NCBI GenBank assembly: GCA_965221125.1
Contig: CBDCRW010000003.1
Location: forward strand, 160,001-224,000
DNA: 64,000 nucleotides
From: Alphaproteobacteria bacterium
Lineage (GTDB): Bacteria; Pseudomonadota; Alphaproteobacteria; UBA828
Direction: 5' to 3'
In this document: positions 37,897-63,259 of the stretch, one piece after another
How the letters are laid out: every line of letters begins with the position of its first letter
How positions within the stretch are numbered: position 1 is the first letter of the stretch
The notes under the pieces: generated by a model
Told to the model about the DNA's origin: nothing
Seen by the model: only the letters and a program-made list of their open reading frames with translations
Database searches by the model: none
Position numbers and translations under genes: made by a program

Positions 37897-38040
37897 GGCG
37901 TCGAAGGGCCTCCCATCCAGTCCCGAGAATTAGATAGCGCCGACCGAGGGCTTGTCAATCGACGGAGCAAAATGCTCTCCCACTGTGGCCTCCGCTGCTG
38001 GCCCATGTTAGGTGCCACCGGGAGACAGCGAGAGCGAGCC

Positions 38041-38496
38041 ATGGCCTATCTCCTCGCCATCCACGTCCTGAGCGCCGTCGTCTGGGTCGGCGGAATGTTC
38101 TTCGCCCTGCTCGTTCTGCGGCCGGCGGCCGGCGCGCTCGAGCCTGCGGTGCGGCTCCCGCTCTGGCGCCGGGTGTTCGCGCGCTTCTTCCCGGCCGTGG
38201 GCGTCGCCGTGCTGGCGCTGCTCGCGACCGGCCACGCGATGATCGTGGTCGAGCTCGGCGGCTTCGGCGCAATCGATCTCTCCGTTCACCTGATGCAGGG
38301 CACCGGCCTGCTCATGGCGCTGATCTACTTGCTGCTTCTGCTGGGGCCCTATCGCGCGTTTCTCAAGGCGCTCGACGCCGGGGTCCTGCCGGCGGCCGGC
38401 CGCGCGATCGAGCGCATTCGATGGCTCATCGCCGTCAACCTGGCCATCGGCGTCGTGACCATCGTGCTCGCCACCACTGGCCACTACTGGGGCTGA
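38041..38496 (+). CDS. CopD/DUF4149-like four-TM membrane protein
   Basis: HVLSAVVWVGGMFFA..LRPAA, four hydrophobic helices. Confidence 0.75.
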   Translation: MAYLLAIHVLSAVVWVGGMFFALLVLRPAAGALEPAVRLPLWRRVFARFFPAVGVAVLALLATGHAMIVVELGGFGAIDLSVHLMQGTGLLMALIYLLLLLGPYRAFLKALDAGVLPAAGRAIERIRWLIAVNLAIGVVTIVLATTGHYWG

Positions 38497-38683
38497 CGAG
38501 CCTCGGCGGCGCGGGCAGCACAGTGTTGCCTGCATGCAAGCGCGCGCCATAATTTCTGCCGTAAATTGAAAACGAAGAAAGCCGCCCTGTTGTATTCTTG
38601 ACGCGTATCAACATTTCTTTTGGAAAACGAGGCAAGACTTCAGGTGTCAATAACAAGTCAACACAGCATTACGAACAGTTAAT

Positions 38684-38712
38684 TTGACATCTCCGCCTCT
38701 CGCGGCCGATAT
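38684..38712 (+). promoter_or_regulatory. Putative sigma70 promoter of the sbmA-like gene
   Basis: TTGACA-N17-CGATAT in an AT-rich intergenic region, followed by a GGGAGG RBS. Confidence 0.5.
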
Positions 38713-38730
38713 AAGATAAAGGGAGGGTTC

Positions 38731-39753
38731 ATGTTCCGATCTTTTTTTCTTTCCCGCGAATGGGCGCTGTGGGCCTGGGGCGGCATGGCAATCATCATTG
38801 GCGGCACCTGGTATCAGGTGCAGGTCGACGTGCAAATCAACGAGTGGTTCGGCGAATTCTACGACGGCGTCCAGAAGGCGCTGGGCGAACCCGGCAGCAT
38901 GACGATCGAAGAGTTCTACGCGCTGCTGCTGTCCTTCGGCCGCATTGCCGGCATCTACATCGTCGTCGCCGTGATGCTCAGCTTTTTCACCAAGCACTGG
39001 GTGTTCCGCTGGCGCCATGCGATGAACGACTTCTACATGGCCCGGTGGGAGCGGCTGCGTCACATCGAGGGCGCCAGCCAGCGCATTCAGGAAGACACCC
39101 GCCGCTTCGCCATTATCATGGAGTCGCTCGGCAGCCGCCTGCTCGATTCCGTCATGACGCTGATCGCCTTCCTGCCGATTCTCTGGCAGCTCTCGAAGTC
39201 GATCAAGGTGGTTCCGGTGATCGGCGAGCTGGACCACGCGCTGGTCTACGCCGCCATCATCTTCGCGCTGTTCGGCACGGCCGTGCTGGCGGTGGTCGGC
39301 ATCAGGCTTCCGGGACTGGAGTTCAACAACCAGGTGGTGGAGGCCGCTTATAGAAAGGAACTCGTGTACGGCGAGGACCACGAAGAACGCGCCGATCCGC
39401 CGACCGTGCGGGAGTTGTTTTTCAACGTCCGCCGCAATTATTTTCGTCTGTTTTTCCACTACATGTACTTCGATATCGCGAAGTGGTCGTATCTCCAGTT
39501 CGGTGTTCTGGTGCCCTACATCGTGCTGGCGCCGACCATCGTCGCCGGCACGATCACCCTCGGCGTGATGCAGCAGATCGTCCGTGCGTTCGGACGCGTG
39601 GAGGGTTCGTTCCAGTACCTCGTGCACAGCTGGACAGTCATCGTCGAGCTGATCTCGGTCTACAAGCGGCTGCGCGCGTTCGAGGCGGCGCTCTACGACC
39701 GCGGGCCCTACGCGGAGCCCCCTCCGTGCGGCCCGTCCAGATTTGGCCGGTAA
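38731..39753 (+). CDS. SbmA/BacA-like peptide transporter
   Basis: MFRSFF, INEWFGEFYD, FRWR.AMN, IEGASQRIQEDT, NQVVEAAYRKELVYGED, ELISVYKRLRAFE. Confidence 0.9.
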   Translation: MFRSFFLSREWALWAWGGMAIIIGGTWYQVQVDVQINEWFGEFYDGVQKALGEPGSMTIEEFYALLLSFGRIAGIYIVVAVMLSFFTKHWVFRWRHAMNDFYMARWERLRHIEGASQRIQEDTRRFAIIMESLGSRLLDSVMTLIAFLPILWQLSKSIKVVPVIGELDHALVYAAIIFALFGTAVLAVVGIRLPGLEFNNQVVEAAYRKELVYGEDHEERADPPTVRELFFNVRRNYFRLFFHYMYFDIAKWSYLQFGVLVPYIVLAPTIVAGTITLGVMQQIVRAFGRVEGSFQYLVHSWTVIVELISVYKRLRAFEAALYDRGPYAEPPPCGPSRFGR

Positions 39754-39756
39754 TCC

Positions 39757-40653
39757 TCAATCGAACACGGGCGTGCCGTGGGCGCCCGATTCCCGCATCG
39801 CCCAGTAGAGCTTGTCGAGCCGGTCGGTAACGGGACCGGGGCAGGGCTGCGGCAGCCGTCGGCCGGCGATCTCGCGCACCGCGAGCGCGCCGCCGGCAGT
39901 GCTGCACGTGAAGACCTCGTCGGCCGCGTAGAGGTCGAAGGCGGTCAAATCGCATTCGACGAGCGGCAGGCCCGCGTCCCGCGTAAGTTCCATGAAGGTC
40001 TGGCGCGTGATGCCGCGCAGCACGTTGCGGCCGGGCGTGCGCACCACGCCGTCCTTGACCGCAAAGATGTTCGACGCCGGCCCCTCGCAGGCGTAGCCCG
40101 CCTGGTCGAGCCAGATCACGTCGTCGTACCCCGCTTCCAGCGCCTCCAACCGCGCCATCTGCGAGTGCAGCCGGTCGAGGCACTTGTAGCGGGCATCGAG
40201 CGTATCGGGCGAGAACGCCCGCAGATGGGTGATGTGCAGGCGAATGCCTGAGCGCCGCGTCGCCTCGTCGGCGAGGAAGATGTAGGGCGCGGCCCAGACG
40301 ACGCGCGTGGGCTCGAAGTCGCGCGGGTCGGCGACGACGGCGTTGGGCGCGCCGCGGGTCACGATGAAGCGGATGCTGGCGTCGCGCAGCCCGTTGCGCC
40401 GGCAGGTCTGGACGATCGCGGCACGCCAGTTGTCGCGGGTCATCGCGGTTTCCAGGCGCGTCGCGCGCAGCGAATCGAAGAAGCGATCGATGTGCTGATC
40501 GAGCTTGAAGATCGAGCCGCGCCAGGCCGAGACCACGTCGAAGACGCCATCGCCGAGGAGAAACCCCTGGTCGAGCACAGAGACCTTGGCCTCGCCGAGC
40601 GGCACGAAGTCGCCGTTGAGGTAGACGATGGGCTCGTTGGGTGTCTCTGCCAT
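39757..40653 (-). CDS. Fold-type IV PLP aminotransferase
   Basis: YLNGDFV, LDQGFLLGDGVFD, catalytic Lys in RYKC, EGPASNIF, LRGITR, ADEVF. Confidence 0.9.
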   Translation of the reverse strand: MAETPNEPIVYLNGDFVPLGEAKVSVLDQGFLLGDGVFDVVSAWRGSIFKLDQHIDRFFDSLRATRLETAMTRDNWRAAIVQTCRRNGLRDASIRFIVTRGAPNAVVADPRDFEPTRVVWAAPYIFLADEATRRSGIRLHITHLRAFSPDTLDARYKCLDRLHSQMARLEALEAGYDDVIWLDQAGYACEGPASNIFAVKDGVVRTPGRNVLRGITRQTFMELTRDAGLPLVECDLTAFDLYAADEVFTCSTAGGALAVREIAGRRLPQPCPGPVTDRLDKLYWAMRESGAHGTPVFD

Positions 40654-47901: not shown

Positions 47902-48327
47902 CGCTCATTCCGAGTCCGTGTGACGGGTCTCCAAACCTTCTCGACAGCGCCGAGCGCACGGCCAGGCGGCGCAGGGCGCTGTCGCCCATCCCGATCCTCT
48001 CGCAGTCGACCGGGGATCGCGCGCGTCGTGGGAAGAGACACCCCGTTGCCCTCGCGTCTGGCAACGGTTTGGCCGCCCGTGAGCGCTCCGCAGAGTCAGG
48101 TGGACCTCGGCATCCTCCCAGTCTCCATCGCGACTCCCTGTCAGTCGAACGGGACGGCTTATCGCGTCTTCGTGCCGCGAATACGCTGACATTCCACGGT
48201 GCCAGGTGTCAACTCGATTGCCGCGGTTCGGCCTGCGTCACGGACAGCCCGGCAGCGATTCGGCAGCCGCGCCCCCAGCGCGCTATGATTCGGCCGCGGC
48301 GCGATGAAGAAGCGGAGGGAAATTCCG

Positions 48328-49761
48328 ATGAGCGGCTTCGCGGAGTACGAATCATACGATGCGCTGGGTCTCGCGGCGCTCGTCAAGGCGGGCGAGGTCA
48401 GCGCGACGGAGGTGCTCGAAGCAGCCATCGCGCGCGTGGGCGAACGCAACCCCACCGTCAACGCGGTCGTCATGGAGCTTTACGACCTCGCGGCGGAGGC
48501 CATCGCGGCGGGCCTGCCGGACGGGCCGCTCACCGGCGTGCCGTTCCTGCTCAAGGATCTCGGCTCGTCGCTCGCCGGCGCCAGGACAGCGCGGGGCAGC
48601 CGCTTCTTCGCCGACCTGCCGCCGGCCGCCGAGGACAGCCTCCACGTCACGCGCCTCAAGCAGGCCGGCATGGTGATCTACGGCAAGACGAGCAGCTGCG
48701 AGCTCGGCCTCAGCCTCACCTGCGAGCCCCAGCTCTACGGCCCCTCGCGCAACCCCTGGGACCTGGAGCGGACACCCGCCGGCTCCAGCGGCGGCGCTGC
48801 GGCGGCCGTGGCGGCCCGCATGCTGCCCATCGCCCATGCCTCGGACGGATTCGGCTCGATCCGCGCGCCGGCGGCCTCCTGCGGCCTGGTCGGCCTGCGC
48901 CCGACGCGGGCGCGCAACACCATGGCGCCCTACTTCGGCGAATCGCTCGGCGGGCTCGCGGTGGAGAACGCGGTCTCGCTCACGGTCCGCGACAGCGCGG
49001 CGCTGCTCGATGCGACGGCCGGTCCTGCGCCGGGCGATCCCTACATCGCGCCGCCGCCGGCCCGCCCCTTCCTCGACGAGGTCGGCGCCGATCCCGGCAC
49101 GCTCCGCATCGCGGTCACCAGCACGGCGCCGAACGACGCGCCGGTGGAGGCCGACCCGCTGCGCGTGCTGCAGGAGACCGCGTCGCTCTGCGCCGACCTC
49201 GGCCATCGGGTGGACGAGGCCGACCCGGCGATCGACGGCGCCGACGTGGTGCCGACCTTCCGCACCATCAGCGCCATTCAGATCCTCTACCTGATTCGGG
49301 CTCATCCTGCCGGCCGGACGCCGCAGCCGGGCGATCTCGAGACCGTGGTGGCGGACACCGCCAAACTCGCCGAGGGGATCGACGGCGCGACCTACATGGC
49401 GGCGGTCCACACGGCGCACCGGATCGGCCGGCAAATGGCGGCGTTCCACGAGGACTGGGACGTGCTGCTCACGCCGGGCCTCGGCACGCTGCCGCCGAAA
49501 CTCGGCTGGCTCGACATGATGATGGACGATCTGGAGGAGTACTGGCGGCGCGTGTTCAGCTTCAGCCCGTTCACGGTGTGGTTCAACCTCACCGGCCAGC
49601 CGGCCATGATGATCCCGCTCGGGCAGACGGAGAGCGGCTTCCCGGTGGCGGTGCAGGCGATCGCCCGCCACGGCGACGAGGCCACGCTGTTCCGCCTCGC
49701 CGCCCAGCTCGAAGAGGCCCGCCCCTGGATCGGCCGCAGGCCCGCGTGGACTACATCCTGA
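48328..49761 (+). CDS. Amidase signature family protein
   Basis: [42 protein letters not shown]. Confidence 0.93.
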
Positions 49762-52075
49762 CGCGCGACTTGTCGGGGTCATAGAAGGGGAACGGCACGA
49801 CCGTCGCCTCGAGGCGCTTCTGCACGTCGTCGAGCTGGCCCACCTCGACGGCGGTGCCGAGCCCCGCGTGCTCCACCGCCATGCGGCAGAGCGCGATGGA
49901 CTTTCCGGTCAGCGGCGAGCGCGTGCCCGACGTGACGACGCCGACGCGGTGGCGGCCGACGAACACGCCATCGCCGTGGCCCGCCACCTCGTCGCCCGCA
50001 AGCTCCAGGCCGACCAGCGTGCGCTGCGGGTTGGCCCTGCGCTTGATGAGCGCCGCCCTGCCGCAAAAGTCGTCCTCCTTGGACTTGAGCGGCACCGCAA
50101 ACCCGATCCCGGCCTCGAAGGGGTCGGTTTGATCGTCGAACTCGTAGCCCGCGAAGATCAGACCGGCCTCGATCCGCAGCATGTCGAGCGCTTCGAGGCC
50201 GAGCGGGCTCAGCCCGTGCGGCTCGCCCGCCTCGAAGACCGCGTCCCACACCGCCGCGCAATCGCCCGGATGGCAGAAAATCTCGTAGCCCAGCTCGCCG
50301 GTGTAGCCCGTGCGCGAGACCACCAGGGGCGAGCCGTCCGCGCCGCCCAGCCGCCCGACGGCGAAGCGGAACCAGCCGAGTTCCCCGACGCTCGGCTGGG
50401 CCGGCGGGGTCCAGACGACCGCGTCCACCACCTGCCGGCTCAGCGGACCCTGGACGGAGAGGTTGTGGAGCTGGTCGGTCGACGAGCGGACCCACACGTC
50501 GAGGCCCAGCGCCTCGGCCTGCTCACGCAGCCAGTCGCCGCCCTGGTCGCAGCCGCCGATCCAGCGGAAATTGTCCCGGCCCAGCCGGAACAGCGTGCCG
50601 TCGTCGAGCATCGTGCCGGTGTCGTAGCACATGGCCGTGTAGACGACCTGCCCCACCGCGAGCTTCCGCACGTTGCGGGTGAGGCAGTGCTGCAATAGCG
50701 CCTCCGCCCCCGGCCCCAGGACCTCGAACTTGCGCAGCGGCGAAAGGTCGATGGCGGCGGCGCGCTCGCGGCAGGCCCAGTATTCGGCGATCGGCCCGAC
50801 GCCGGTATAGCTGTTGGGCAGCCAATAGCCGTTGTATTCCACGAAGTCGCGGGTGCGGCCGCTGCTGCGGGCGTGGAAGCCGGTTTCCTTCGTCATGGTC
50901 ACGTCCGCGTCCGGTTGTTTGCGGTGACCGACGGCGCGCTTGAACGAGTCCGTCGCCGGATAGACGCGCACGTGAATGTCGGTGGGGTTCCAGCCGTTCG
51001 CCGCGTCGATGTCGTCCGGGCACGCGGACGAGACGCACACCAGGTCGGTGAGCGCGCGCAGCAGCACGTAGTCGCCGGGGCGCGACCACGGCTCGTCGAG
51101 AACGAACAGGTTCTGGCCGTCGACCACGGTGTTGTAGAAGAAGTTCATGGCCATCCAGCCGCGCCGGGGCTGAATCGCATACGCCTCCAGCGCGGCGTTG
51201 AAATTGTCGGAACAATTCGCGTGGCCGGGGTAGCCCTGGTCCTCGTAGTACTTGGCGGCGCAGGCGAGGCCGAAGGCGTCGTGGCGCATGCACGTGTCCT
51301 GCACCACCTCCACCAGCGCCACGAAATCCTGATCGAGATACTTGGCGCGCTGGCCGGGATGGGGATAGCCGAGGCCCATCAGCGAGCGGGTCGTGGTCAC
51401 GTCCAGGCAGCGCTCGACGCCTTCATCGAGCCGTGCCCGGTGGAAGGCCTGGAAGTCCGTGCACTGCCTGCCCTCGACATCGATGATCTGAAGCCACTCG
51501 CCGGCGCGCACCTCGTAGCTCGCGGCCGTGCGGCGATCGATCCGCCGGTCGAGGCGCGGGTCCGCCAGCGGCTCGGGCAGCATCGCCTCGCCTGCCGGCG
51601 GCGCACCGGCCGCACGCTCGACGAACACGATGATCGGCGTGGGCGGGTTCTGACCGTGCGGAGCCATCGGCGCACCCGGCGCGGCAACGAGCACCGTGCC
51701 GGCGGCGTTCGCGGTGAATGACGCCTCCTCGCCCGCGCGGCTCTCCGAACTGAACAGGTCGAGGGACGAGGCGCCGGCGAGGTCCCGGTCCACGCGCGCG
51801 GCACCGTCAGAAACCAGCCGGCGGAGGCCGGAAGCATCGCCCCCTGCCCTCTCCCCCAGCAGGTCGGTAGCAAAGCGGCCGTCGTCCGCCACGGGCACCA
51901 GCTCGCAGGGCTGCGCGCCCTCGGGATCGACGACGCGGACGACGTCGCCGCCGGCGATCCGTATGGCCTTCGCGCCGAGCCCCGGCACGACGTAGCGCTC
52001 GACCCCCGGCGGGAGCGCGTGCGGGCCGGGCCGCCGCACGCCCCGGCCGGGACGGGACGCACCGGCTGAAACCAT
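49751..52075 (-). CDS. tdm: TMAO demethylase (DUF1989 + GcvT aminomethyltransferase)
   Basis: GRQCTDF, DTCMRHDAFGLACAAKYYEDQGYPGHANCSDNFN, SACPDDID, followed by GcvT motifs DLSPLRKFE, SRTGYTGELGYE, LRIEAG, FYDP; directly downstream of tmoXWV. Confidence 0.9.
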   Translation of the reverse strand: MVSAGASRPGRGVRRPGPHALPPGVERYVVPGLGAKAIRIAGGDVVRVVDPEGAQPCELVPVADDGRFATDLLGERAGGDASGLRRLVSDGAARVDRDLAGASSLDLFSSESRAGEEASFTANAAGTVLVAAPGAPMAPHGQNPPTPIIVFVERAAGAPPAGEAMLPEPLADPRLDRRIDRRTAASYEVRAGEWLQIIDVEGRQCTDFQAFHRARLDEGVERCLDVTTTRSLMGLGYPHPGQRAKYLDQDFVALVEVVQDTCMRHDAFGLACAAKYYEDQGYPGHANCSDNFNAALEAYAIQPRRGWMAMNFFYNTVVDGQNLFVLDEPWSRPGDYVLLRALTDLVCVSSACPDDIDAANGWNPTDIHVRVYPATDSFKRAVGHRKQPDADVTMTKETGFHARSSGRTRDFVEYNGYWLPNSYTGVGPIAEYWACRERAAAIDLSPLRKFEVLGPGAEALLQHCLTRNVRKLAVGQVVYTAMCYDTGTMLDDGTLFRLGRDNFRWIGGCDQGGDWLREQAEALGLDVWVRSSTDQLHNLSVQGPLSRQVVDAVVWTPPAQPSVGELGWFRFAVGRLGGADGSPLVVSRTGYTGELGYEIFCHPGDCAAVWDAVFEAGEPHGLSPLGLEALDMLRIEAGLIFAGYEFDDQTDPFEAGIGFAVPLKSKEDDFCGRAALIKRRANPQRTLVGLELAGDEVAGHGDGVFVGRHRVGVVTSGTRSPLTGKSIALCRMAVEHAGLGTAVEVGQLDDVQKRLEATVVPFPFYDPDKSRVRM

Positions 52076-52105
52076 GTCCATTTCCTCGTCTCCCTCGGCG
52101 GTCGC

Positions 52106-54106
52106 TCAGGCAAGGCCCAGCTGGCGCCGCCGCTGCTCCGACCACTCCACGACCAGGCGGTCGACGGTGAGCCCGATGAAGGCGACGCAGAGGCCGATGA
52201 CGAGCCCCTTGCCCGCATCGGCGAAGGTCAGCGCCCGGAAGATCTCCTGGCCGAGGTCCTTGGTGCCGATGAAGGCGGCGATGATCACCATGAAGAGCCC
52301 GAACATGATGGTCTGGTTGACCCCCAGCATGATCTCGGGGAAGGCCAGAGGCATCCGCACCTTCCACAGGATCTGCCGCGGCGTGCAGCCGGCGGTAATC
52401 GCCGCCTCGATGGTCTCGTTGGGCACGCCGCGCAGGCCGAAGATCGTGTAGCGCACAATCGGGATCGCCGCGTAGATCACGATGGCCGTGATCGCGGCCA
52501 CGTCGCCCACCTGGAACAGCATGATCACGGGGATCAGGTAGATGAACGACGGGAAGGTCTGGAAGGTATCGCAGAGCAGTTGCACGAAGCGCGTGCGCCG
52601 CGCCGTCTTCGATGCCCAGATGCCGAGCGGCAGCCCGAAGATCAGGCAGAGGATCAGCGCGAAGAAGACCATGTAGGCCGTGATCGACGCGCGCTCCCAG
52701 AAGCCCGTGAGCGCGATGAAGGCGACGAAGCCGGCCACCGTCGCAGACAGCCGCCAGCCCGCGAGCCGCCAGCCGATGGCGCCGGCCAGCGCCGCGACCG
52801 CGATCCACGGCATCCACTGGAAGCCCGTGCGCAGCGGGATCAGCACGTGCACCAGCAGCCCGTCGCGGATGATGGAGAGCGGATCGTAGAGCGCGAAGGT
52901 GACGACATCGACGACCATGTCCCAGAAAGGCGCAGTGGTGATGGTGGCGTTCCTGGGCAGCGTCTGGGCATAGGGCGTGAGCTGCGAGGCGACGATGGAC
53001 GCGGCGATCACGAGTCCCGCGACGCAGAGGTATGGGTGCACCCGCCAGAACGGCCCTTCCGGGCGGCGCTCGGGCTGCTTCTCGGAGAGCGCCCGGCTGA
53101 GGCGGTCGAGCATGACCGCCATCAGCACCACGGCGACGCCGTTCTCGAGCGCCTGCCCGAGGCGCAGGCTCTGCAGGCGGAACAGCAGGTCCTGCCCCAG
53201 CCCCTTGGCGCCCACGAAGGAGGCGATCACCACCATCGCCAGGCACTGCATGATGACCTGGTTGACGCCCAGCATGAGCGAATCGCGCGCGGCCGGTATC
53301 TCCACCTTGAAGAGCATCTGCCAGCGCGTGCACCCGGCCATGCGGCCGGCCTCCCGCACCTCTTCCGAGACGCCCTTGAGCCCGAGCACGGTGAGCCGCG
53401 CCATCGGCGGGATCGCGAAGAGGATCGTGGCGATGGCGCCGGCCCGGTGCGAGACGCCGATGAAGAGCGCCACCGGGATCAGGTACGAGAAATGCGGCAG
53501 CGACTGCATGACGTTGAGGATCGGCCAGAGCAACCGCTCGAAGGGCGGCCACTTGACCGCCACCACGCCCAGAGCCACGCCGACGGCGGCCGCGATCGGC
53601 GCCGCGACCAGGACGACGGAGAGCGTCGTCATCGAGAGCGACCACTTGCCGAAGACGGCGAAGTAGACGATGCAGCCGCCGGCGAGCAGCGCGAGGCGCC
53701 AGCCCTTCAGCCACCAGCCGAAGACCGCGGCGAGGCCGGCGATCATCACCCACGGGATGGCGGGAATGCCGATCGACCTGAAGCCGTCTGCGAGCAGGCC
53801 GTGCACGATGTCGAGCGGCCACTCGATCCCGAAGGCGATCGCCCGCGTCGCGTCCTTCACGGTGAAGACGCCGAAGATCTCGTGCTTGTGGAAGACGTCG
53901 ACGACGACGTTGATCCAGTCGATGAAGGGTACCGCGATATCCCTGGGCCAGACGATCCCGGCCTCGGGCAGGATGGGCTTCAGCGCGAGGAGGACGACGA
54001 ACGGCACCAGGACGAGGAGCGGCCCCGCCCCCGGCGTGCGCCAGAGGCGGCGGGTGGCCGCGACCGGGCCCGCGATCGATCCGCCGAGGGTCCGCTCCGC
54101 GGCCAT
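52106..54106 (-). CDS. tmoV: TMAO ABC transporter fused double permease
   Basis: Two ProW-like halves (QSLPHFSYLIP / QTFPSFIYLIP, two EAA loops, LGVNQ twice). Confidence 0.85.
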   Translation of the reverse strand: MAAERTLGGSIAGPVAATRRLWRTPGAGPLLVLVPFVVLLALKPILPEAGIVWPRDIAVPFIDWINVVVDVFHKHEIFGVFTVKDATRAIAFGIEWPLDIVHGLLADGFRSIGIPAIPWVMIAGLAAVFGWWLKGWRLALLAGGCIVYFAVFGKWSLSMTTLSVVLVAAPIAAAVGVALGVVAVKWPPFERLLWPILNVMQSLPHFSYLIPVALFIGVSHRAGAIATILFAIPPMARLTVLGLKGVSEEVREAGRMAGCTRWQMLFKVEIPAARDSLMLGVNQVIMQCLAMVVIASFVGAKGLGQDLLFRLQSLRLGQALENGVAVVLMAVMLDRLSRALSEKQPERRPEGPFWRVHPYLCVAGLVIAASIVASQLTPYAQTLPRNATITTAPFWDMVVDVVTFALYDPLSIIRDGLLVHVLIPLRTGFQWMPWIAVAALAGAIGWRLAGWRLSATVAGFVAFIALTGFWERASITAYMVFFALILCLIFGLPLGIWASKTARRTRFVQLLCDTFQTFPSFIYLIPVIMLFQVGDVAAITAIVIYAAIPIVRYTIFGLRGVPNETIEAAITAGCTPRQILWKVRMPLAFPEIMLGVNQTIMFGLFMVIIAAFIGTKDLGQEIFRALTFADAGKGLVIGLCVAFIGLTVDRLVVEWSEQRRRQLGLA

Positions 54107-54109
54107 GGT

Positions 54110-55135
54110 CTACGCGCGGTCGCTGTACATCGCGTGGACGAGGCGGTAGCGGTCCACCACGCCGACCGTCCTGCCGTTCTCGTCGACCACGGCCACCGGG
54201 TGCTCGGCCTCGATCACCTGCGGTGCCACGTCCGCCAGCGTGGCGTCCGCCCTGACCTCGCCCTGCGTGGCCTCGTCCGCAGCCGCGGGGCGCACCGCCG
54301 TCGCCACCGTGAGCAGGCGATCCCGCGCCACGTCCTTGGTGAACTCGCGCACGTAGTCGGTCTCCGGGTTCTCGATCAGCTCGGTGGCGGTGCCGGACTG
54401 CTCGATGATGCCGTCCTTCATGATGATGATCCGGTCGGCGAGCCGGATGGCCTCGTCGAAGTCGTGCGTGATGAACAGGATCGTCTTCTGCAGCATGTTC
54501 TGCAGGCGCAGGAACTCGTTCTGCATCTCGCGCCGGATGAGCGGGTCGAGGGCGGAGAACGGCTCGTCGAGGAACCAGAGCTCGGGCCCCACGGCGAGCG
54601 AGCGGGCGATGCCGACGCGTTGCTGCTGCCCGCCGGAAAGCTCGCGCGGGTAGTAGCGCTCGCGCCCGTCGAGGCCCACGAGCTCGATCATCTCCCGGGC
54701 GCGGGCCTCGCGGGTGCGCCGGTCGATGCCCTGCACCTCGAGGGGAAAGGCCACGTTCTGCAGCACCGTGCGGTGGGGCAGCAGCGCGAAGTGCTGAAAC
54801 ACCATGCCCATCTTGTGGCGGCGCAGCTGCGTCAGCTCGCGATTGGTCGCCTTGAGCAGGTCCTGGCCCTCAAACACGATCTCGCCGGCGGTGGGCTCGA
54901 TCAGGCGCGCGAGGCAGCGCAGAAGCGTGGACTTGCCGGAGCCCGAGAGCCCCATGATCACGAGTATCTCGCCGGCGTTGACCTCCAGCGAGGCGTCGCG
55001 CACGGCGGGGATGTAGCCTTCTTCCAGAATGGCGGCGAGGTCGGGCGCGCCCCCGTGCCGGTCCATGAACGGCCGGGGCTTGGGGCCGAACAGCTTCCAG
55101 ACGCTGCTGCACGTGAGAATGGGATCGGCCAACAT
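54110..55135 (-). CDS. tmoW: TMAO ABC transporter ATPase (ProV-like)
   Basis: GLSGSGKS, LSGGQQQRVGIARSL, DEPFSALDPLIR, ITHD, C-terminal CBS-like region. Confidence 0.88.
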   Translation of the reverse strand: MLADPILTCSSVWKLFGPKPRPFMDRHGGAPDLAAILEEGYIPAVRDASLEVNAGEILVIMGLSGSGKSTLLRCLARLIEPTAGEIVFEGQDLLKATNRELTQLRRHKMGMVFQHFALLPHRTVLQNVAFPLEVQGIDRRTREARAREMIELVGLDGRERYYPRELSGGQQQRVGIARSLAVGPELWFLDEPFSALDPLIRREMQNEFLRLQNMLQKTILFITHDFDEAIRLADRIIIMKDGIIEQSGTATELIENPETDYVREFTKDVARDRLLTVATAVRPAAADEATQGEVRADATLADVAPQVIEAEHPVAVVDENGRTVGVVDRYRLVHAMYSDRA

Positions 55136-55255
55136 GCACCTCCCTGCCGCGGCGAAGCGTGCGTTGCCGCTCCGCCCGGTCAGCCCGCCTCCCCCGTCGC
55201 CGGCGGCGCGGGGCACGGACTGCCTTATGCCCGTACTATGTGCCGGCAGGGGCAC

Positions 55256-55301
55256 GAAATAAAGCGAGGGCGCCGCCACAGGGAGACGGACGGCGCCCTC
55301 G
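55256..55301 (-). terminator. Hairpin with U-rich tail between tmoX and tmoW
   Basis: CGAGGGCGCCG...CGGCGCCCTCG stem; the minus strand continues CTTTATTT. Confidence 0.6.
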
Positions 55302-55319
55302 TCGCCAGCAGGCTCTAGG

Positions 55320-56288
55320 CTAGTTCACCCAGGACTGCCACTTGGCTTCGTTGTCGGCCAGCCACTTGTCGGCCGCCTCTTCGACTTCCATGCCGTCGAT
55401 GTCGACGAGCTTGGACATCACCGCGATGTCGAGATTGGTGAGGTTCATCTTCGAGACGATGGCATAGACCGTCGGCCACTTGTCGGGCATGCCCTTCCAG
55501 ACGCCGATCTTGAGATAGCCGTCCTTCGGGTTGCCGCAGTCGTAGGTCATATCGGGGTTGGGACCCCAGGCCGGATCGTCCTTGCAGCCCTCGCCATACT
55601 CGGGGAACTCGACGAACTTGCCGTCGTAGATCGCCTCGATGAAGTTGGGCGTCCAGTTGAAGTGCACGATCGGCGCCTTGCGCTCGAACGCCGATGCGAG
55701 CTCCGCCCAGATCGCCGCGGCCGAGCCGGCGTTCACCACCTCGAAGTCCATGCCGAGGCCTTCGACGCGCTCGGCGTCGTGCTTCAACCAGTCGACCGGC
55801 CCGCCGAGGAAGCGACCCTTCGGGGCCGTCTCGGCCGTGGAGAACATCTCGGCGCAGGCATTCAGCGCTTGCCAGTCGGGCAGGCCCGGGCACTGCTCCT
55901 CGACATAGCTCGGATACCACCACTCCTCGCGGGTCTTCGCGTCGTGGGTCGCGGCGTCGATCACGCAGCCCTGGTCCACCACCGTCTCGAAGGCCACGCC
56001 GAACGCGCCCTGCCAGACCTCGTGGACCACGTCGATGTCACCCTCGCACATGGAGGTGTAGACCACCTGGCTGTCGGCGGGGATGAACTCGGTCGCGAAG
56101 CCCTGGCCGTTCAGAATCTTGCCCAGGACATGGGCGCCCACGATCTGGCTCGACCAGTTGTGGATCGGTATCTTGATCGGGTCGTCGGAATCCGCGGCCC
56201 CTGCCACGCCGGACACGGCGCCCGACAGGCCGATCGCGGCCCCCGCGACGAGGGCGATTGCCAACCGCCTCATTTTCGTTCCCACCAT
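55320..56288 (-). CDS. tmoX: TMAO-binding periplasmic protein
   Basis: ADSDDPIKIPIHNWSSQIV, EVWQGAFG, TREEWWYP, CPGLPDWQALN, GPVDWLKH, FNWTPNF, YDCGNPKDGYLK match the TmoX clade as recalled. Confidence 0.9.
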   Translation of the reverse strand: MVGTKMRRLAIALVAGAAIGLSGAVSGVAGAADSDDPIKIPIHNWSSQIVGAHVLGKILNGQGFATEFIPADSQVVYTSMCEGDIDVVHEVWQGAFGVAFETVVDQGCVIDAATHDAKTREEWWYPSYVEEQCPGLPDWQALNACAEMFSTAETAPKGRFLGGPVDWLKHDAERVEGLGMDFEVVNAGSAAAIWAELASAFERKAPIVHFNWTPNFIEAIYDGKFVEFPEYGEGCKDDPAWGPNPDMTYDCGNPKDGYLKIGVWKGMPDKWPTVYAIVSKMNLTNLDIAVMSKLVDIDGMEVEEAADKWLADNEAKWQSWVN

Positions 56289-56369
56289 AGTCGCCTCCTC
56301 CATGTTGCTTGCGTGCGGTCCTCGGCATGCGCAGACATCCGCGCAGCTAAGCACAAGGGTAAAGAGGCG

Positions 56370-56431
56370 TTGTGAACAAGACAGACCATTGCCATAAACA
56401 GCCTGTAAAAGATCATGAAAGATGTGAAAAT
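56370..56431 (-). promoter_or_regulatory. Degenerate tor-box-like direct repeats in the tmoX/torR divergent promoter
   Basis: Minus-strand decamers TTGTTCACAA (56370-79), CTGTTTATGG (56392-401) and ATTTTCACAT (56422-31), each 7/10 to CTGTTCATAT; weaker copies at 56403 and 56413. Confidence 0.5.
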
Positions 56432-56457
56432 GGAGAATCGATGATCCGAGCCCGCGA

Positions 56458-57162
<705 letters not shown>

Positions 57163-60144
57163 GCGCTGCGCTCGGCTGAATCGAGGCCGGCCCAGAGCGT
57201 CACCAGCGCCTCGCGGGACTCTTCGAACAGGCTCCCCAGGTCCTCGGCGAGCGCAGCCGCCTCCGGCGTCCGCGCGCGCGCTTCCAGCACGCCGCAGCGG
57301 TCCGCCAGGCGGCGCAGCCCGAGGCTGCCGGCGGCACCCCGCAGCGCGTGGGCGAGATCCGCCGCGCGCTCGATGCGCCCCTCGACCAGAGCCTGCCTGA
57401 TCCCGTCGATCTGGACCGGGGCGGTTTCCACAAACGTGTCGATCATCAGGGCGCCGCGCTCGGCTCCGAGAACGGCGCGGTCCTCCGCCAGCACGGTCGG
57501 ATCGATGATCGAGCCGTCGTCGCCGGCGTCCCGCTCGCCGCCCTCGCTTCTGCGTCCGTCGCGCGTGTGGCCGAGGACGCGCGCAATCGTCTCCGCCAGG
57601 CCGTCGGGCGCGATGGGCTTGCCGATGAAGGCATCCATCCCCGACTGCAGGTGCTGCGCGACCTCGCTGTCGAACACGTGCGCCGACATGGCGATGACGG
57701 GCAGCGAGCGGATCGCCGCATCGGTGTGAGCGCGGATGCGCTGCGTCGCCTCGATGCCGTCGATGCCCGGCAGGCTGATGTCCATCAGCACCAGATCGAA
57801 GGTCCGGGTCTCGAGCAGCGCGAGCCCCTCTTCGGCGGTCGGCGCGACCAGCGGCTCGTGCCCCATCCTGGCGACGAAGGCTTCGACGACCATCGCGTTG
57901 ACCACGTTATCCTCGACGACGAGGACGCTCAGCGCCCTCTCGGGCCCGGCCGCCCCGTGCGGAATCGCTTCGGCCGGCGGCTGCGCTGCGGCCTCGCTCT
58001 GCGGCAGCGGCAGCGTGACCGAGAAGCAACTGCCCTCCCCCGGCTCGGTCTCCACCGCGATTTGCCCGCCCATCGCCGTGACCAGCCGCCGGGAGATGGC
58101 GAGGCCGAGCCCGGTTCCGGTCTGCTGCCCGCGCCGGCGCGAGGACGCCGCCTGGTAGAAGGGCTCGAAGAGCTGGGCCAGGTCGGGCTCGGCGATGCCG
58201 GGGCCCGTATCCCGCACGGCAAGGTGGATCGCGTCGCGCCCGCCGCCGTTGGAGACCGCGAGCGAGACGGTGCCGCGGTCCGTGAACTTGATGCCGTTGC
58301 CGAGCAGGTTGAGAAGCACCTGGCTCAGCTTCTGGCGATCGCCCGTCACCGCCGCCGGCACGCCCGCGTCGATGGTGAGGTCAAGGGCGAGGTCCTTCTC
58401 CCTCGCGCGGCCCTGCATGAGCACCACGATGTCCTCGACCAGCTCGTGCAGGTCGAAGACGGCGTTGTCGACCTCGATCTCGCCGGACTCGACCCGCGAG
58501 TAATCCAGGATGTCGTTGAGGATGCCGAGCAGGATTTCGCTCGACGAGCGCATGACCCGGACCTGCTGCTGTTGCCGGTCGTTCAGCGGGCCGTCCGCCA
58601 TGAGCCGCAGCATGCCGAGCACCCCGTTCATCGGGGTGCGGATCTCGTGGCTCATCGTGGCAAGGAACTCCGACTTGGCGCGGCTCGCCTGCTCGGCGCG
58701 GGCCCGCGCCTGGTCGTGGTTCTCCACTTCCTCGACGAGCCGCGCGTTGGCGTCCGTCAACTGCGCCGTGCGCTCGTCGACCAGCCTTTCCAGCTGTTCC
58801 TTGTGCTCTTGCAGCTCGTCGTAGGTCTGCTTTTGCTTTTTCTCGAGCTCCCGCTTTTCGCTCAGGTTGTTGCGGAACACCTTGACCGTCTTGGCCATGT
58901 CCGAAAGTTCGTCGCTGCCTCCCGCCGGCACGTCAACGTCAAGGCGCCCGCTGGCAAGGCTCTGCATCACCCGGTGCAGCGCCCTGAGCCGGTGGACGAG
59001 GTTGCGGTGGACGTAGAGCCAGGCGATGGCGCCCGCGATGGCGATGAAGAGCACGATCTGCAGCAGCACGGTGAGGCCGCCGAACTCGACGGCGCTGTCC
59101 GCCGCCTCGGATGCGTTGGCGGCGATCAGTTGAGAGCGGGAGACCACCGCTGCCACGCCTTCGTTCATCCGGTCGGTCAGCGCGCGATCGTCGTCGACGA
59201 GGCTGGCGAGCGCGGCATCGAGAGCCAGCGTCCGGCGGCGCAGGTCGAACAGGCCGAGCGTGCCGGGCGGCCCATCGGCCGCGAGCGCGGCAACGAGCGT
59301 CCCCGCCTGCTCGCGGCGGATCGGATCGTCGATCAGGGCCACGCGGCGCGGCAGGATGCGGAGGTTGCCGCTGTAGCGCTCCTCGATCCAGGCGATCTCG
59401 TCGGCATCGCGCGCCCGGCTGAGCTGGTTCAGCAGCAGCCCCTGCTCCGAGGCGCGCATCCTGAGCTCGAACATCCGCTCGAGCAGGAACAGATCGGCCT
59501 CGACCAGCCGGTCGAAGGCGTCCAGCGTGGCCGGCAGGCGCGCCCGGTCCTCGACCAGCTCGTAGAGGTTGGAGATGACCACGGTGGCGCCGGACGCCGC
59601 GTTGGAGGTGAGCGTCTCGGAAAGCGCGGAGAGTTCCCCGGCCGCGGCCAGCGTGCGCGCGACCGAGGCGGCCATCACGGCGTTCATCTCGATCCGCGCC
59701 GCGACCATTTCGTCCTGCCGCTCCAGGTTGGCCGTCAGCGCCGAGACCACGCCGCGCAGCTCGGCGACTTCCTCCTCGGGGAAGCCGTACCCCTCCAGCG
59801 CATCGAGCCGGGCGGAGAGCAGATCGGTCGTGGAGCGGAGGATGTGGGCCTCCGCCTGCCGCTCGGCCTGGCTCTCGGCCGTGGCGAGCAGGGCGCCGCG
59901 CGCGGCGATCCGGCTCGAGGTCTCGGCGATGATCCGCCCCTCGGCGATGGCCGGCAGGGCCTGATCGACGATGGTGGTCTGCGCCGTGTCGACGTTGCGC
60001 AGCACGACCCAGCCGATGATCCCGGCTGCGATGGAGAGAGCCGCGACGCCAGCGAACGCGGCGAAGAGGCGGCTCGCGATGCCGAAGCGGCGGAACATGG
60101 GAAATTAGAACACCGGATGGAATCGAAAGGCAATCGGCTTCAGA

Positions 60145-61278
60145 ATGACGTCCATGAGATCATGCCGTCTGCCTGGGCTGGTGCTGGGGCTGCTTGCGGG
60201 CCTGGCGCTGGCTGCAAGCCCGACGCACGGGCCGGCGCACGAAGCGCCTCAGGAAGCGGCGCAGGAAGCGCCGCAGGCCCCCGCGCCGCCCGCGACATGG
60301 GCGCTCGAGGTCTGGTCGCCGCCCTTCGACTTCCGCAGCCCGACGACGACCATTACCTATCGCCCCCTCGGGCAAGCGTCCCGGAAATGGCGCATCTGCG
60401 CCTCGTACCCCCACCTCAAGGATTCGTACTGGCTCAGCGTCAACTACGGCATGGTCGAGGAGGCGAAGCGGCTCGGCGTGGCGCTCCGCGTCGTCGAAGC
60501 CGGCGGCTACCCCAACCTGGAGCGCCAGATCGCCCAGATCACCGAGTGCGCCAGGGACGCGGACATTCTGGCGCTGGGCGCGGTGAGCTTCGACGGCCTG
60601 ACCGAAGCGGTGGTGGCGATCAGCGAGCAGATTCCGGTGCTCGCCGTGGTCAACGACATCGCCGACCCCGGTATCAGCGCCAAGGCCGCCGTCTCGTGGG
60701 TGACGATGGGGGCCGTCACCGGCGCCTACCTCGCCAGCCTCCACCCGGCCGGCACGCCGCCGGTCAAGGTGGCGTGGTTCCCGGGCCCCCGCCAGTCGCA
60801 GTGGGCCCACTTCGTCGAGGAGGGGTTCACCGAGGCGCTCGCCGGCAGCGCCGTCGATATCGTGCTCCGAAAGTGGGGCGACACCGGGCGGGAAATCCAG
60901 CTCATCCTGGTCGAGGAAGCGCTGGAGGAACGGCCGGACGTCGACTACATCGTGGGCAGCGCCGTCACCGCCGGCGTGGCGGTCAGCCTGCTCCGGGCGC
61001 GCGGCCTCACCGGCCGGATCCGCGTGCTGGCGGACTACTTCACCCACGCCGTCTACCGCGGGATCAAGCGCGAGAAGATCCTGGCCGCGCCCACCGATTT
61101 TCCCGCACTCCAGGGGCGAATGGGGATCGAGATGGCCGTGCGGCTGCTCGAAGGCAAGCTCGAACACCCGCACGCGGGGCCGCTGATCCACATCGTCGAG
61201 CAGGGCAACCTCGGCGACTTCAGCACGCGCCTCTCGCTCGCGCCTGCCGATTTCTCGCCGACCTTCGTGGTCGAATAG
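60145..61278 (+). CDS. torT: Periplasmic TMAO sensor accessory protein
   Basis: WRICASYPHLKDSYWLSVNYGMVEEA, EAGGYPN, FPGP, GSAV, HAVYRG.KR, APTD are TorT hallmarks; divergent from torS. Confidence 0.92.
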   Translation: MTSMRSCRLPGLVLGLLAGLALAASPTHGPAHEAPQEAAQEAPQAPAPPATWALEVWSPPFDFRSPTTTITYRPLGQASRKWRICASYPHLKDSYWLSVNYGMVEEAKRLGVALRVVEAGGYPNLERQIAQITECARDADILALGAVSFDGLTEAVVAISEQIPVLAVVNDIADPGISAKAAVSWVTMGAVTGAYLASLHPAGTPPVKVAWFPGPRQSQWAHFVEEGFTEALAGSAVDIVLRKWGDTGREIQLILVEEALEERPDVDYIVGSAVTAGVAVSLLRARGLTGRIRVLADYFTHAVYRGIKREKILAAPTDFPALQGRMGIEMAVRLLEGKLEHPHAGPLIHIVEQGNLGDFSTRLSLAPADFSPTFVVE

Positions 61279-61444
61279 GCGCCGCCAAGCGATGTAGTAG
61301 ACGCGCGGTCGTATATTCTTCACCCCACTGTCGCTTTGCCCTGCGCCCACTCTTTGGCATGATGCGCCGTCCGATTCCGATGCACTGGCGGGGAGTTGGC
61401 CGCCGGTGAGCGCGCCGGCACGGTGGCAAGGGGTATCTGGAACC

Positions 61445-62008
61445 ATGCACGCATCGCTCGACAGCTGCCCTGCGCTGGTGCTCAACGCCGACTATCGGCC
61501 GCTCAGCTACTTCCCGCTCTCGGTCTGGGGCTGGCAGGACGCGGTCAAGGCCGCCTTCCTCGACCGGGTGACGATCCTGTCGACCTACGACCGCGCCATC
61601 CGCTCGCCCAGCATGGCGATCCGGCTGCCGAGCGTCGTGGCGCTGAAGCGCTACCGCCCGCTCGCCCGCCGCCCCGCGTTTACCCGCTTCAACGTCTTCC
61701 TGCGCGATTCCTTCACCTGCCAGTACTGCGTGACGCCCTTCCCCGTGGAGAACCTCACCTTCGACCACCTGGTGCCGCGTTCGCGTGGCGGGCGCACCAC
61801 GTGGGAGAACGTCCTCGCCGCCTGCAGCGCCTGCAACCTCTCCAAGGGCGATCGGCTGCCGCAGGAGTGCGGCATGCGGCCCCAGCGCAAGCCCAGGGCG
61901 CCGAGCGCCTACGACCTGCACGAGGCGGGCCGGCGCTTCCCGCCCCGCTACCTGCACGAGAGCTGGGGCGACTACCTCTACTGGGATTCCGAGCTGGACC
62001 CCGACTAG
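61445..62008 (+). CDS. HNH endonuclease (McrA-like, conserved stand-alone type)
   Basis: ALVLNADYRPLSYFP, FTRFNVFLRD.F.CQYC, TFDHLVPRSRGG, ACSACN..KG, YLHESWGDYLYWD. Confidence 0.9.
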   Translation: MHASLDSCPALVLNADYRPLSYFPLSVWGWQDAVKAAFLDRVTILSTYDRAIRSPSMAIRLPSVVALKRYRPLARRPAFTRFNVFLRDSFTCQYCVTPFPVENLTFDHLVPRSRGGRTTWENVLAACSACNLSKGDRLPQECGMRPQRKPRAPSAYDLHEAGRRFPPRYLHESWGDYLYWDSELDPD

Positions 62009-62032
62009 CCCCGCCGAACCGGGAGAGCGCAG

Positions 62033-62824
62033 ATGCTCGTCGAGCAGATCTGGACCGCCAACGCCTACCGCAACTTCAACTACCTCATCGCCTGCCCCGA
62101 GACCGGCGAGGCTCTGGCCGTCGATCCGCTGGATCACCGGCGCTGCCTCAAGGCGGCCGGGGACAAGGGCTGGCAGATCACCCAGATCCTCAACACCCAC
62201 GAGCACGGCGACCACACCGGCGGCAACAAGGCGATGGTCAAGGCGACCGGCGCGCGCCTGCTGGCCCACGCCAACGCGAAGGGCAAGATCCCCGATATCG
62301 ACCGGGGACTCGATGCTGGCGACGTGATCACGGTGGGCGCCACGGTGGAGCTGGAGGCGCTGGACACCCCCGGCCACACCATGAGCCACGTGTGCCTGCT
62401 GTCTCGCACCGACACGCCGGCGCTCTTCTGCGGCGACACGCTCTTCAATGCCGGCGCCGGCAACTGCCACTCCGGCGGCCACCCGGCGGAGCTTTACGAG
62501 ACCTTCGCCGGCCAGCTCGCGAAGCTCCCGGACGAGACCCTGATCTATCCCGGCCACGACTACATCGCGAACAACCTGGAGTTCACCCTGGACCGGGAGC
62601 CCGACAACGAGCGGGCGAAGACGCTGCTCGACGAGGTGGGGCCGCAGGACCCCGACGACGCCCTGGTCTCGACCCTGGCGCTGGAGAAGGAGATCAACAC
62701 CTTCTTCCGCCTGCACAGCGCGAGCGTCATCGCGCGCCTGCGCGAGGCCTTCCCCGACCTCTCCGACGACCCCGGCCCGCGCGAGGTCTTCCTCAAGCTC
62801 CGCGAGCTGCGGAACAGCTGGTAG
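62033..62824 (+). CDS. gloB: Hydroxyacylglutathione hydrolase (glyoxalase II)-like metallo-beta-lactamase fold protein
   Basis: NTHEHGDHTGG, TPGHT, GDTLF.AGAG, YPGHDY, EKEINTF. Confidence 0.85.
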   Translation: MLVEQIWTANAYRNFNYLIACPETGEALAVDPLDHRRCLKAAGDKGWQITQILNTHEHGDHTGGNKAMVKATGARLLAHANAKGKIPDIDRGLDAGDVITVGATVELEALDTPGHTMSHVCLLSRTDTPALFCGDTLFNAGAGNCHSGGHPAELYETFAGQLAKLPDETLIYPGHDYIANNLEFTLDREPDNERAKTLLDEVGPQDPDDALVSTLALEKEINTFFRLHSASVIARLREAFPDLSDDPGPREVFLKLRELRNSW

Positions 62825-62845
62825 GGAGCCCCCGGATCGCGGGCC

Positions 62846-63259
62846 ATGAGCGCACCCCGCGAGCAGCGCTGGCGTCAGCGCATGGAGAGCTTCGGCGCCG
62901 CACTCGAACGGTTGGACGAGGCCTGCCGGCAGACCTCATACACGAACCTCGAGCGGGCCGGACTGGTCCAGACGTTCGTGTTCTCCTACGAGCTCGGCTG
63001 GAAGTCCCTGCGGGACTTGCTCCTTTTCGAGGGATACGATCCGAATAGCCCACGCGACGTGATCCGCCAGGGCTTCGAGGCGGCGTATCTCGACGCCGAC
63101 GATTGCGAGACCTTTCTCGATGCCGTCGGCAGGCGCAACCTGCTGACCCACACGTACCGGGACGAGACCGCCCGCGAAGCGGAAGCGTCGATCAAGGGCC
63201 GGTATCACCCGATGCTTCGCAGGCTGCACCGGGCGCTGCAAGGCAAGCGCACCGCATGA
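62846..63259 (+). CDS. HEPN-domain protein (HI0074-like nucleotidyltransferase substrate-binding subunit)
   Basis: RWRQR, GLVQTF.FSYELGWK, SPRDVIR, RNLLTHTY (Rx4H). Confidence 0.88.
   Translation: MSAPREQRWRQRMESFGAALERLDEACRQTSYTNLERAGLVQTFVFSYELGWKSLRDLLLFEGYDPNSPRDVIRQGFEAAYLDADDCETFLDAVGRRNLLTHTYRDETAREAEASIKGRYHPMLRRLHRALQGKRTA

Follow-up and report, generated by a model that had tools for sequence, protein, structure and literature searches.

Seven genes of the tmo-tor locus

The analysed window was a 64,000-nucleotide stretch from the alphaproteobacterial lineage UBA828 (GenBank assembly GCA_965221125.1, contig CBDCRW010000003.1, positions 160,001 to 224,000, forward strand), and the system in question was a set of genes for the signalling proteins TorT, TorS, and TorR attached to genes predicted to serve import and demethylation of trimethylamine N-oxide (TMAO), namely tmoX, tmoV, tmoW, and tdm. 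The assembly comprised 4.58 Mb in 7 contigs and was 92% complete and 5.8% contaminated; the G+C content of the window was 70%. Open reading frames together with Pfam and NCBIfam models defined seven genes in window positions 49751-61278:

49751..52081, minus strand: tdm, TMAO demethylase of 776 aa and final gene of the operon, separated from tmoW by 24 nt (NF053776; DUF1989 + GCV_T + GCV_T_C)
52106..54106, minus strand: tmoW, permease of 666 aa, a fusion of two BPD_transp_1 halves
54110..55279, minus strand: tmoV, ProV/OpuAA-type ATP-binding cassette (ABC) ATPase (TIGR01186, proV subfamily), weak C-terminal CBS match
55320..56273, minus strand: tmoX, predicted periplasmic TMAO-binding protein of the importer, OpuAC fold (PF04069, E=2.6e-45)
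56458..57162, plus strand: torR, OmpR-family response regulator (NF008034)
57132..60098, minus strand: torS, hybrid sensor kinase (TIGR02956; PF21689 TorS_sensor_domain)
60145..61278, plus strand: torT, periplasmic binding protein partnering the sensor, signal peptide present (NF008185)

By coordinate the minus-strand block read tdm, tmoW, tmoV, and tmoX, and the transcription order was accordingly tmoX, tmoV (ATPase), tmoW (permease), and tdm; the gaps of 40, 3, and 24 nt between them indicate one operon. The first-pass annotation of this DNA had described a minus-strand tdm/tmo block with a divergent torR followed by torS and torT, and its genes and coordinates were retained, but two details were corrected, namely how tmoV and tmoW are ordered and where tmoX starts: the open frame of tmoX extended to a GTG at 56354, the signal peptide opened at the Met at 56273, and the latter is most likely the start. 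The tails of torR (plus) and torS (minus) overlapped by 31 bp (57132-57162); the same kind of overlap occurs in Escherichia coli in another gene order, where 28 bp of torR overlap with torT.

The three signalling proteins were those of the TorTSR-torCAD system of E. coli (also found in Vibrio and Shewanella), and each exceeded an NCBIfam cut-off. TorR scored 285.3 bits with NF008034 (cut-off 275), was 51% identical to E. coli TorR, and had a conserved context of the receiver Asp. TorS scored 778.4 bits with TIGR02956 (cut-off 676.5) and carried the TorS_sensor_domain (PF21689, E=3.8e-43); all six Pfam domains were present in the E. coli order (TorS sensor, HAMP, HisKA, HATPase, receiver, and HPt), and H484, D773, and H917 were aligned with H453, D733, and H860 of E. 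coli TorS, which we take to be its phosphorylation sites. TorT scored 371.9 bits with NF008185 (cut-off 200), and its gene was divergent, across 46 bp, from that of the TorS carrying the TorS-type periplasmic sensor domain. TorS and TorT were each single-copy in the assembly. The gene order differed between the two systems: torR, torS, and torT in the window, and torS, torT, and torR in E. coli.

The remaining four proteins resembled the TmoXWV-Tdm set of Ruegeria pomeroyi DSS-3 and SAR11 in three respects, a TmoX match to PDB 4XZ6, a Tdm equivalog, and a betaine/choline-type transporter. TmoX matched PDB 4xz6_A over residues 46-343 (298 residues; phmmer E=3.9e-121), an entry labelled in the database only as glycine betaine/proline binding protein and presumably the R. 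pomeroyi TmoX structure; NCBIfam holds no curated TmoX model, and the best match of TmoX there was a choline-binding subfamily (41.9 bits vs a cut-off of 379). Tdm scored 1169.2 bits with the equivalog model NF053776 (cut-off 1100) and contained DUF1989, GCV_T, and GCV_T_C. TmoV scored 344.7 bits with TIGR01186 (cut-off 326.6), its CBS match (22.9 bits) staying below the cut-off of 24, and full-length TmoW relatives (86-100% coverage) were found in 59 of the 62 related loci with a TmoW match. With a binding protein near the studied TmoX and an adjoining ATPase and permease of ProV/ProW type, TmoXVW is predicted from sequence to be a TMAO importer. TorT (Peripla_BP_1/4) and TmoX (OpuAC) came from unrelated binding-protein families in Pfam, as had been proposed. 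Unlike in R. pomeroyi, a periplasm-sensing two-component system stood at the operon, and tdm was joined into the transporter operon.

The tor-box module between tmoX and torR

The gap between tmoX and torR (184 bp) contained five decamers resembling the tor box:

56370..56379, minus strand: tor-box-like decamer nearest tmoX, counterpart of E. coli box 4 (TTGTTCACAA read towards tmoX; 13.7 bits)
56392..56401, minus strand: weak decamer 22 bp from the first box, counterpart of the low-affinity box 3 of E. coli (-0.7 bits)
56403..56431, minus strand: three tandem decamers beside torR, starting at 56403, 56413, and 56422, matching E. coli boxes 2 and 1, with one additional copy

The box consensus read on the minus strand, towards tmoX. 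The tmoX-proximal box (TTGTGAACAA on the plus strand) was the strongest of the window, its 13.7 bits coming from a matrix that left out the window's clade. The extra tandem copy was the one starting at 56403, so the four-box layout consisted of 56370, 56392, 56413, and 56422, and 26 nt separated the tandem boxes from the torR start codon. The E. coli K-12 region has boxes 1 and 2 side by side next to torR, then box 3, and finally box 4 beside torC; a typical tor box reads CTGTTCATAT, box 3 being a weak CCGTTCATCC (PMC9239176).

The motif emerged without a seed from 49 non-redundant regions upstream of torR, in which the commonest 7-mers were TTGTGAA and TGTTAAC (each 24/49), the reverse complement of the tor-box core. 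Iteration led to the decamer WTGTKAAMAN, which had 144 sites across the full set and 139, in 45 sequences, once the window's clade was removed. The decamer shared the core TTCA/TGAA with E. coli but had G at the third position, where E. coli ATATGAACAG has A, and the window further differed by its extra tandem box. An exact search of the window for ATATGAACAG with at most 2 mismatches gave 7 matches vs 8.9 expected, none of them in the gap; given the local G at position 3, a matrix was needed. A first matrix scan at 8 bits returned no clusters, and softened matrix thresholds were used after it.

Four-box placements were made with start-to-start distances from the operon side and one base of play per step. 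The spacing was exactly 22/21/10 in 46 of 58 tmoX-torR gaps (57 loci plus the window) and 22/21/9 in the six sequences of the window's clade; under the same matrix, the torC-torR region of E. coli gave 22/21/10 and 29.2 bits. Orientation and the tandem pair beside torR were likewise shared with E. coli, and the second box from the operon was the weak one in E. coli and in the tmo-linked gaps alike (in the layout test -0.7 bits at 56392 and -0.6 bits for E. coli box 3). The four-box score exceeded those of all 20 own shuffles in 58/58 gaps. On both strands of the 4.58-Mb genome, the gap was the best four-box site (27.7 bits, the next independent site reaching 11.7; matrix without the window's clade) and also the best 80-bp cluster (31.3 vs 21.5 bits). 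Direct repeats of the tor box in the E. coli four-box layout, a mark of TorR at a promoter that it controls, were thus present in front of tmoX, and the module was kept, spacing included, across a change of output.

The comparison was also applied to Oceanospirillaceae and Candidatus Njordibacter genomes, in which tdm, tmoX, tmoV, and tmoW are followed by torR and all are co-directional. Six such genomes, none used in matrix building, had their best four-box layout just upstream of tdm and pointing at it (6/6; 24.3-32.2 bits, with at most 13.6 bits for the next best layout in each stretch), about 5.5 kb from torR. One of them carried, on the plus strand towards tdm, the tandem pair, CCATTCATAG, and an exact CTGTTCATAT, with the tdm start 60-75 nt later. 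The boxes therefore follow the operon, not torR. This bears on the possibility that the neighbouring position says nothing about the regulation of tmoX, with the boxes serving only autoregulation of torR and the operon answering to another regulator such as TmaR. TmaR mediates the induction of tmoXWV and tdm in R. pomeroyi, and the accessible part of the paper mentions no Tor system (PMC13390433); 31 of 37 Rhodobacterales tmoX loci had no adjoining TorT; yet the position of the module before tdm in 6/6 co-directional genomes, the strength of the tmoX-proximal box in the window, and a layout that copies the E. coli torC promoter make this highly improbable, and given the co-directional genomes it is strongly disfavoured.

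In one Njordibacter locus (L105:1934-2647), 21 nt separated the end of a 237-aa gene from the tor-box module in front of tdm, and this gene could encode a second regulator of the same operon. The next-best two-box clusters of the assembly were considered as TorR targets and set aside: (i) a pair of tor-box-like decamers (CTGTTCACAA and TTTGTTACAA, spaced 20 bp) lay directly upstream of panB and pointed at it (G000:C5:550135-550164, L103), but with two boxes only and no four-box layout, they are probably there by chance; and (ii) an AT-rich stretch near mnmE (C5:528303-528381) likewise had two boxes and no four-box layout and was taken as chance. The panB product is ketopantoate hydroxymethyltransferase, which uses 5,10-methylene-tetrahydrofolate.

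Gene neighbourhoods, TMAO reductase, and the TorT tree

A species-level genome scan with the window TorT was limited to the best 80 of 167 relatives (51-96% identity), and their loci were searched by tblastn with the window proteins plus TorC, TorA, and TorD of E. coli K-12. At least one tmo gene was found in 69/80 loci, TmoX in 62, and all three tmo genes in 58, so the torTSR-tmo synteny, for which a survey of neighbourhoods had been suggested, was conserved. The first-pass observation that tmoX occupies the place of E. coli torC, divergent from torR, recurred as the same arrangement within 700 bp in 57/80 loci. A Tdm at least 50% identical to that of the window was present in only 17/80 loci, and the conserved partner across genomes is accordingly the transporter. 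Carriers included Rhodospirillales-type genomes (the nearest relatives of the window), members of the Roseobacteraceae/Paracoccaceae (Roseovarius, Sulfitobacter, Primorskyibacter, Gemmobacter, and Cypionkella), a Rhizobiaceae genome, Oceanospirillaceae, and Candidatus Njordibacter. Cultured candidate carriers in the scan included Roseovarius mucosus DSM 17069, Sulfitobacter aestuarii, Gemmobacter lutimaris and G. caeni, Cypionkella spp., and Aliisedimentitalea scapharcae. Eleven of the 80 loci had no tmo gene: (i) in five, the contig was short or ended beside the tor genes (L009, L013, L018, L055, and L082); (ii) three were gammaproteobacterial (L074, L077, and L083); and (iii) the others were L032, L042, and L066.

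Within 10 kb, the 80 loci gave no convincing match to TorC, TorA, or TorD, the sole hit being a 25.5%-identical TorA-like stretch in L018. Absence of torC and torA from the window, as noted at first pass, was borne out and extended to the whole assembly, in which the TorA model reached at best 80.8 bits (cut-off 1465) and the TorC model had 0 matches; TorD was not searched for by itself. Control of a torCAD-type TMAO reductase operon, the other mark of TorR, was thus found neither in the assembly nor in the 80 related loci: the system works like a Tor system but is no "TMAO reductase system". Its output differed accordingly from torCAD (c-type cytochrome, molybdo-reductase, and chaperone), being a predicted ABC importer plus a demethylase. 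Among the genomes of five relatives, TorA exceeded its cut-off in 0/5, and a full-length Tdm match was present in 5/5, four over the cut-off and the fifth at 1081.6 bits. A search for trimethylamine monooxygenase (Tmm) gave only a partial match of 45 bits, resembling flavin-containing monooxygenases, which makes such an enzyme unlikely.

TorR might additionally control a reductase operon for TMAO or dimethyl sulfoxide (DMSO) in the unassembled 8% of the genome. Completeness of 92%, with 5.8% contamination, means that a torCAD operon could lie in the missing part, and a DMSO-reductase-family paralogue of 610-657 bits was found, far from the tor locus, in 3/5 relatives; since its alignment starts at model position 39-40, this paralogue is read, from sequence, as a putative signal-less BisC-like enzyme. 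TorA and TorC were however missing from the assembly, G001, the nearest relative whose chromosome is in one piece, had a best TorA-model match of only 87 bits, the assembly held no second four-box site, and torCAD was near 0/80 related loci, so that an additional reductase target is quite improbable.

The distribution was also followed in two broader samples. Of 400 genomes sampled evenly across the phylum, 14 had a TorT-family match: one was torCAD-linked, one had tmoXVW-torR-torS-torT, six lacked TorS, and six had torS-torT alone, the last six (one family) being taken as Vibrio-like. Among 301 Rhodobacterales genomes, 23 had a TorT match of at least 375 bits, and 11 weaker matches (253-309 bits) stood outside these counts. 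TmoX lay 4-5 kb from TorT in 6/23, the distance expected of the tmo-linked layout, with TorS and TorR confirmed between them in two of these six (L037 and L097), and torCAD linkage was found in 0/23. The other 17 (L114-L130) had no TorS or TorR within 10 kb, and an ABC ATPase stood within about 2 kb in 13 of the 17, which suggests transport proteins.

These TorS-less proteins deserve separate mention. The TorT-family proteins of L114-L130 and L096 were 45-52% identical to the window TorT and scored 394-429 bits against the NCBIfam cut-off of 200, and the automatic annotation of these as "TMAO reductase system protein TorT" is probably mistaken. The window TorT resembled such ABC-transporter proteins (PDB 4YHS, deposited as a CUT2-family monosaccharide-binding protein) in this identity and in exceeding the TorT cut-off, but differed from proteins of the 4YHS type, which have no TorS or TorR nearby, in being encoded beside torS.

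A TorT tree of 96 rows was built in quick mode and rooted on six TorS-less proteins. All TorS-coupled TorTs grouped together (Shimodaira-Hasegawa-like approximate likelihood ratio test, SH-aLRT, 99) and contained four groups: (i) eight respiratory-type TorTs (E. coli, one torCAD-linked, and six Vibrio-like) forming one clade (99) on a long stem (1.01); (ii) an alphaproteobacterial tmo-linked group of 65 rows (92); (iii) an Oceanospirillaceae tmo-linked group of 11 rows (99); and (iv) a third tmo-linked group of 6 gammaproteobacterial rows, including three BNR-operon loci (97). The four groups met in a fork that the tree did not resolve, and the tool issued a warning on long branches. By this tree, the tmo-linked TorTs, that of the window included, were not nested inside the respiratory clade of the E. 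coli type. The sensor had been called rewired; coupling to tmoXVW-tdm stood, and a direction from respiration to catabolism was left undecided by the TorT tree.

We infer TMAO to be the ligand of TorT. The same wiring could instead carry another signal, this TorT clade sensing a small polar compound other than TMAO (choline, betaine, DMSO, or another methylated amine, for example) while TorR still drives the operon. In keeping with such a change, tmo-linked TorTs differed from all 8 respiratory TorTs at otherwise conserved positions (W220/G, W211/L or F, and T247/N; also G248/D), so that the ligand could differ; the best solved relative of the window TorT was the transporter-type 4yhs_A (E=2e-97) and not Vibrio TorT (3o1h_B, E=6.1e-59); and sister TorTSR systems with the same box layout faced an unrelated operon in L074 and L083. 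A different signal is nevertheless unlikely, because the controlled genes encode a TmoX close to the studied one plus a Tdm equivalog, for which a non-substrate inducer would be odd, and because 39 TorT columns, including Y95, W96, Y101, Y122, W185, and Y298, were invariant in tmo-linked and respiratory TorTs.

In the gammaproteobacterial loci L074 (1211-5996) and L083 (2809-6089), a TorT/TorS/TorR set was divergent from a non-tmoX operon, and L077 was their sister in the TorT tree. This operon encoded a 537-aa protein (529 aa in L083), a BNR_2 propeller protein of 387 aa (E=6.4e-76 and 3.9e-81), and, in L074, two small proteins (210 and 248 aa). Pfam, NCBIfam, and Atlas gave no match to the 537-aa protein of L074, and Pfam gave none to its 529-aa copy in L083. 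The L074 gap showed the same four-box layout (5707-5769). The operon may serve a TMAO-responsive function.

Around the locus, the operon was closed by a convergent amidase gene (48304-49761, plus strand; PF01425, E=1e-79), with RND (resistance-nodulation-division) efflux genes beyond; the 3' ends of tdm (minus) and the amidase gene (plus) overlapped by 11 bp (49751-49761). Open frames past torT (61396-63048, plus, and 61220-62716, minus) had no Pfam match at E<=1e-5, and an Rfam scan of the window gave 0 matches. The G+C content fell to 0.63 in window positions 38001-40000, compared with about 0.69-0.72 in the rest of the window. Contigs from RNA libraries, at least 90% alike, covered parts of tmoX, tmoV, and torR (4 libraries from 4 studies: sponge, coral, and marine metatranscriptomes); they came mostly from relatives (90-95% alike), may include DNA carry-over, show neither strand, ends, nor level, and are no evidence on regulation.

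Proposed wiring and its meaning

Gene identities, operon structure, synteny, the spacing and orientation of the boxes, and the TorA/TorC negative were obtained by computation. The claim that TorTSR is attached to tmoXVW-tdm and not to a reductase was upheld by the synteny, the tor-box spacing, the module following the operon, and the lack of TorA and TorC in the assembly. We consider it likely that periplasmic TMAO acts through TorT, TorS, and phosphorylated TorR to activate tmoXVW-tdm, in the following steps: (i) TorT would bind periplasmic TMAO and dock on the periplasmic sensor domain of TorS; (ii) TorS would phosphorylate TorR through its His-Asp-His phosphorelay (H484-D773-H917); (iii) phosphorylated TorR would occupy the four-box (here five-box) module in the tmoX-torR gap; (iv) at the tmoX-proximal box it would activate tmoX-tmoV-tmoW-tdm, and at the tandem boxes beside torR it would probably also control torR, as in E. 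coli; and (v) TmoXVW would import TMAO and Tdm would demethylate it to dimethylamine plus a one-carbon unit, with no respiration.

Several points weigh against this wiring, beginning with the TorT substitutions, the incomplete assembly, and the DMSO-reductase-family paralogue given above. Binding of TorR to the boxes, activation of transcription, and TMAO responsiveness are what we infer from these data. Two further models fell short of their cut-offs, the E. coli-type TorS model NF008543 (415.7 vs 982) and, slightly, the second TorT model TIGR02955 (308.0 vs 310). Because gaps of one kind served both to train the position-weight matrix and to be scored with it, clean tests are limited to E. 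coli, the window's clade, and the six co-directional genomes. No four-box layout was found upstream of tdm in 3/3 genomes with tdm far from the tor locus, all scores being negative. A TmoX at least 55% identical to that of the window occurred in 37/301 Rhodobacterales genomes, with TorT adjoining in only 6/37; TorTSR is thus not a general regulator of TMAO catabolism but controls a minority of tmoX loci, which fits R. pomeroyi, where other regulators have been published. The regulators published for R. pomeroyi are the cytoplasmic proteins TmaR (AraC type, with a catabolite downstream of monomethylamine as signal) and TmoR (GntR type) (PMC13390433).

The literature search found no relevant paper joining tmoX with TorS or TorR, although a passing mention or a gene-neighbourhood figure may exist elsewhere, and nothing combining TorT, TMAO, an ABC transporter, and a demethylase. 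No Tor protein or two-component system appeared in the accessible parts of the TmoX and methylamine papers (PMC8918994, PMC5520151, and a 2026 bioRxiv transcriptome study), and TmaR and TmoR were the only regulators named in those of the 2026 paper on pathway regulation in R. pomeroyi (PMC13390433). A Paracoccus genome paper labelled TorS a reductase regulator by homology. The sensor and the catabolic genes are each known; their coupling, with a promoter module kept across a change of output, appears to be undescribed.

The tmo-linked TorTs stood on short branches beside the transporter-type TorT-like proteins. As a tentative idea, which we rate as possible but doubtful, TorT/TorS/TorR outside enterics, Vibrio, and Shewanella may be primarily a nutrient-uptake sensor, the respiratory wiring being a derived special case. 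The presence of the module at a BNR_2 operon in some gammaproteobacteria may point to additional functions that respond to TMAO.

In the sea, TMAO is a major osmolyte as well as a source of nitrogen, carbon, and energy, and to our knowledge the control of bacterial TMAO uptake is known only for R. pomeroyi (TmaR and TmoR). Periplasmic sensing at the transporter operon would permit a response to external TMAO before import, a different regulatory logic, and the TorTSR-tmo wiring occurs in Rhodospirillales, Rhodobacterales, a Rhizobiaceae genome, and Oceanospirillaceae. The annotation of TorT, TorS, and TorR as a "TMAO reductase system" is misleading in genomes without such a reductase. These aerobic marine bacteria would offer a ready pair of TMAO-responsive promoter and sensor, as well as tractable isolates for testing TMAO sensing. 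Between the respiratory and the catabolic setting, one sensor and one promoter architecture would serve two opposite ends, TMAO as electron acceptor and TMAO as nutrient.

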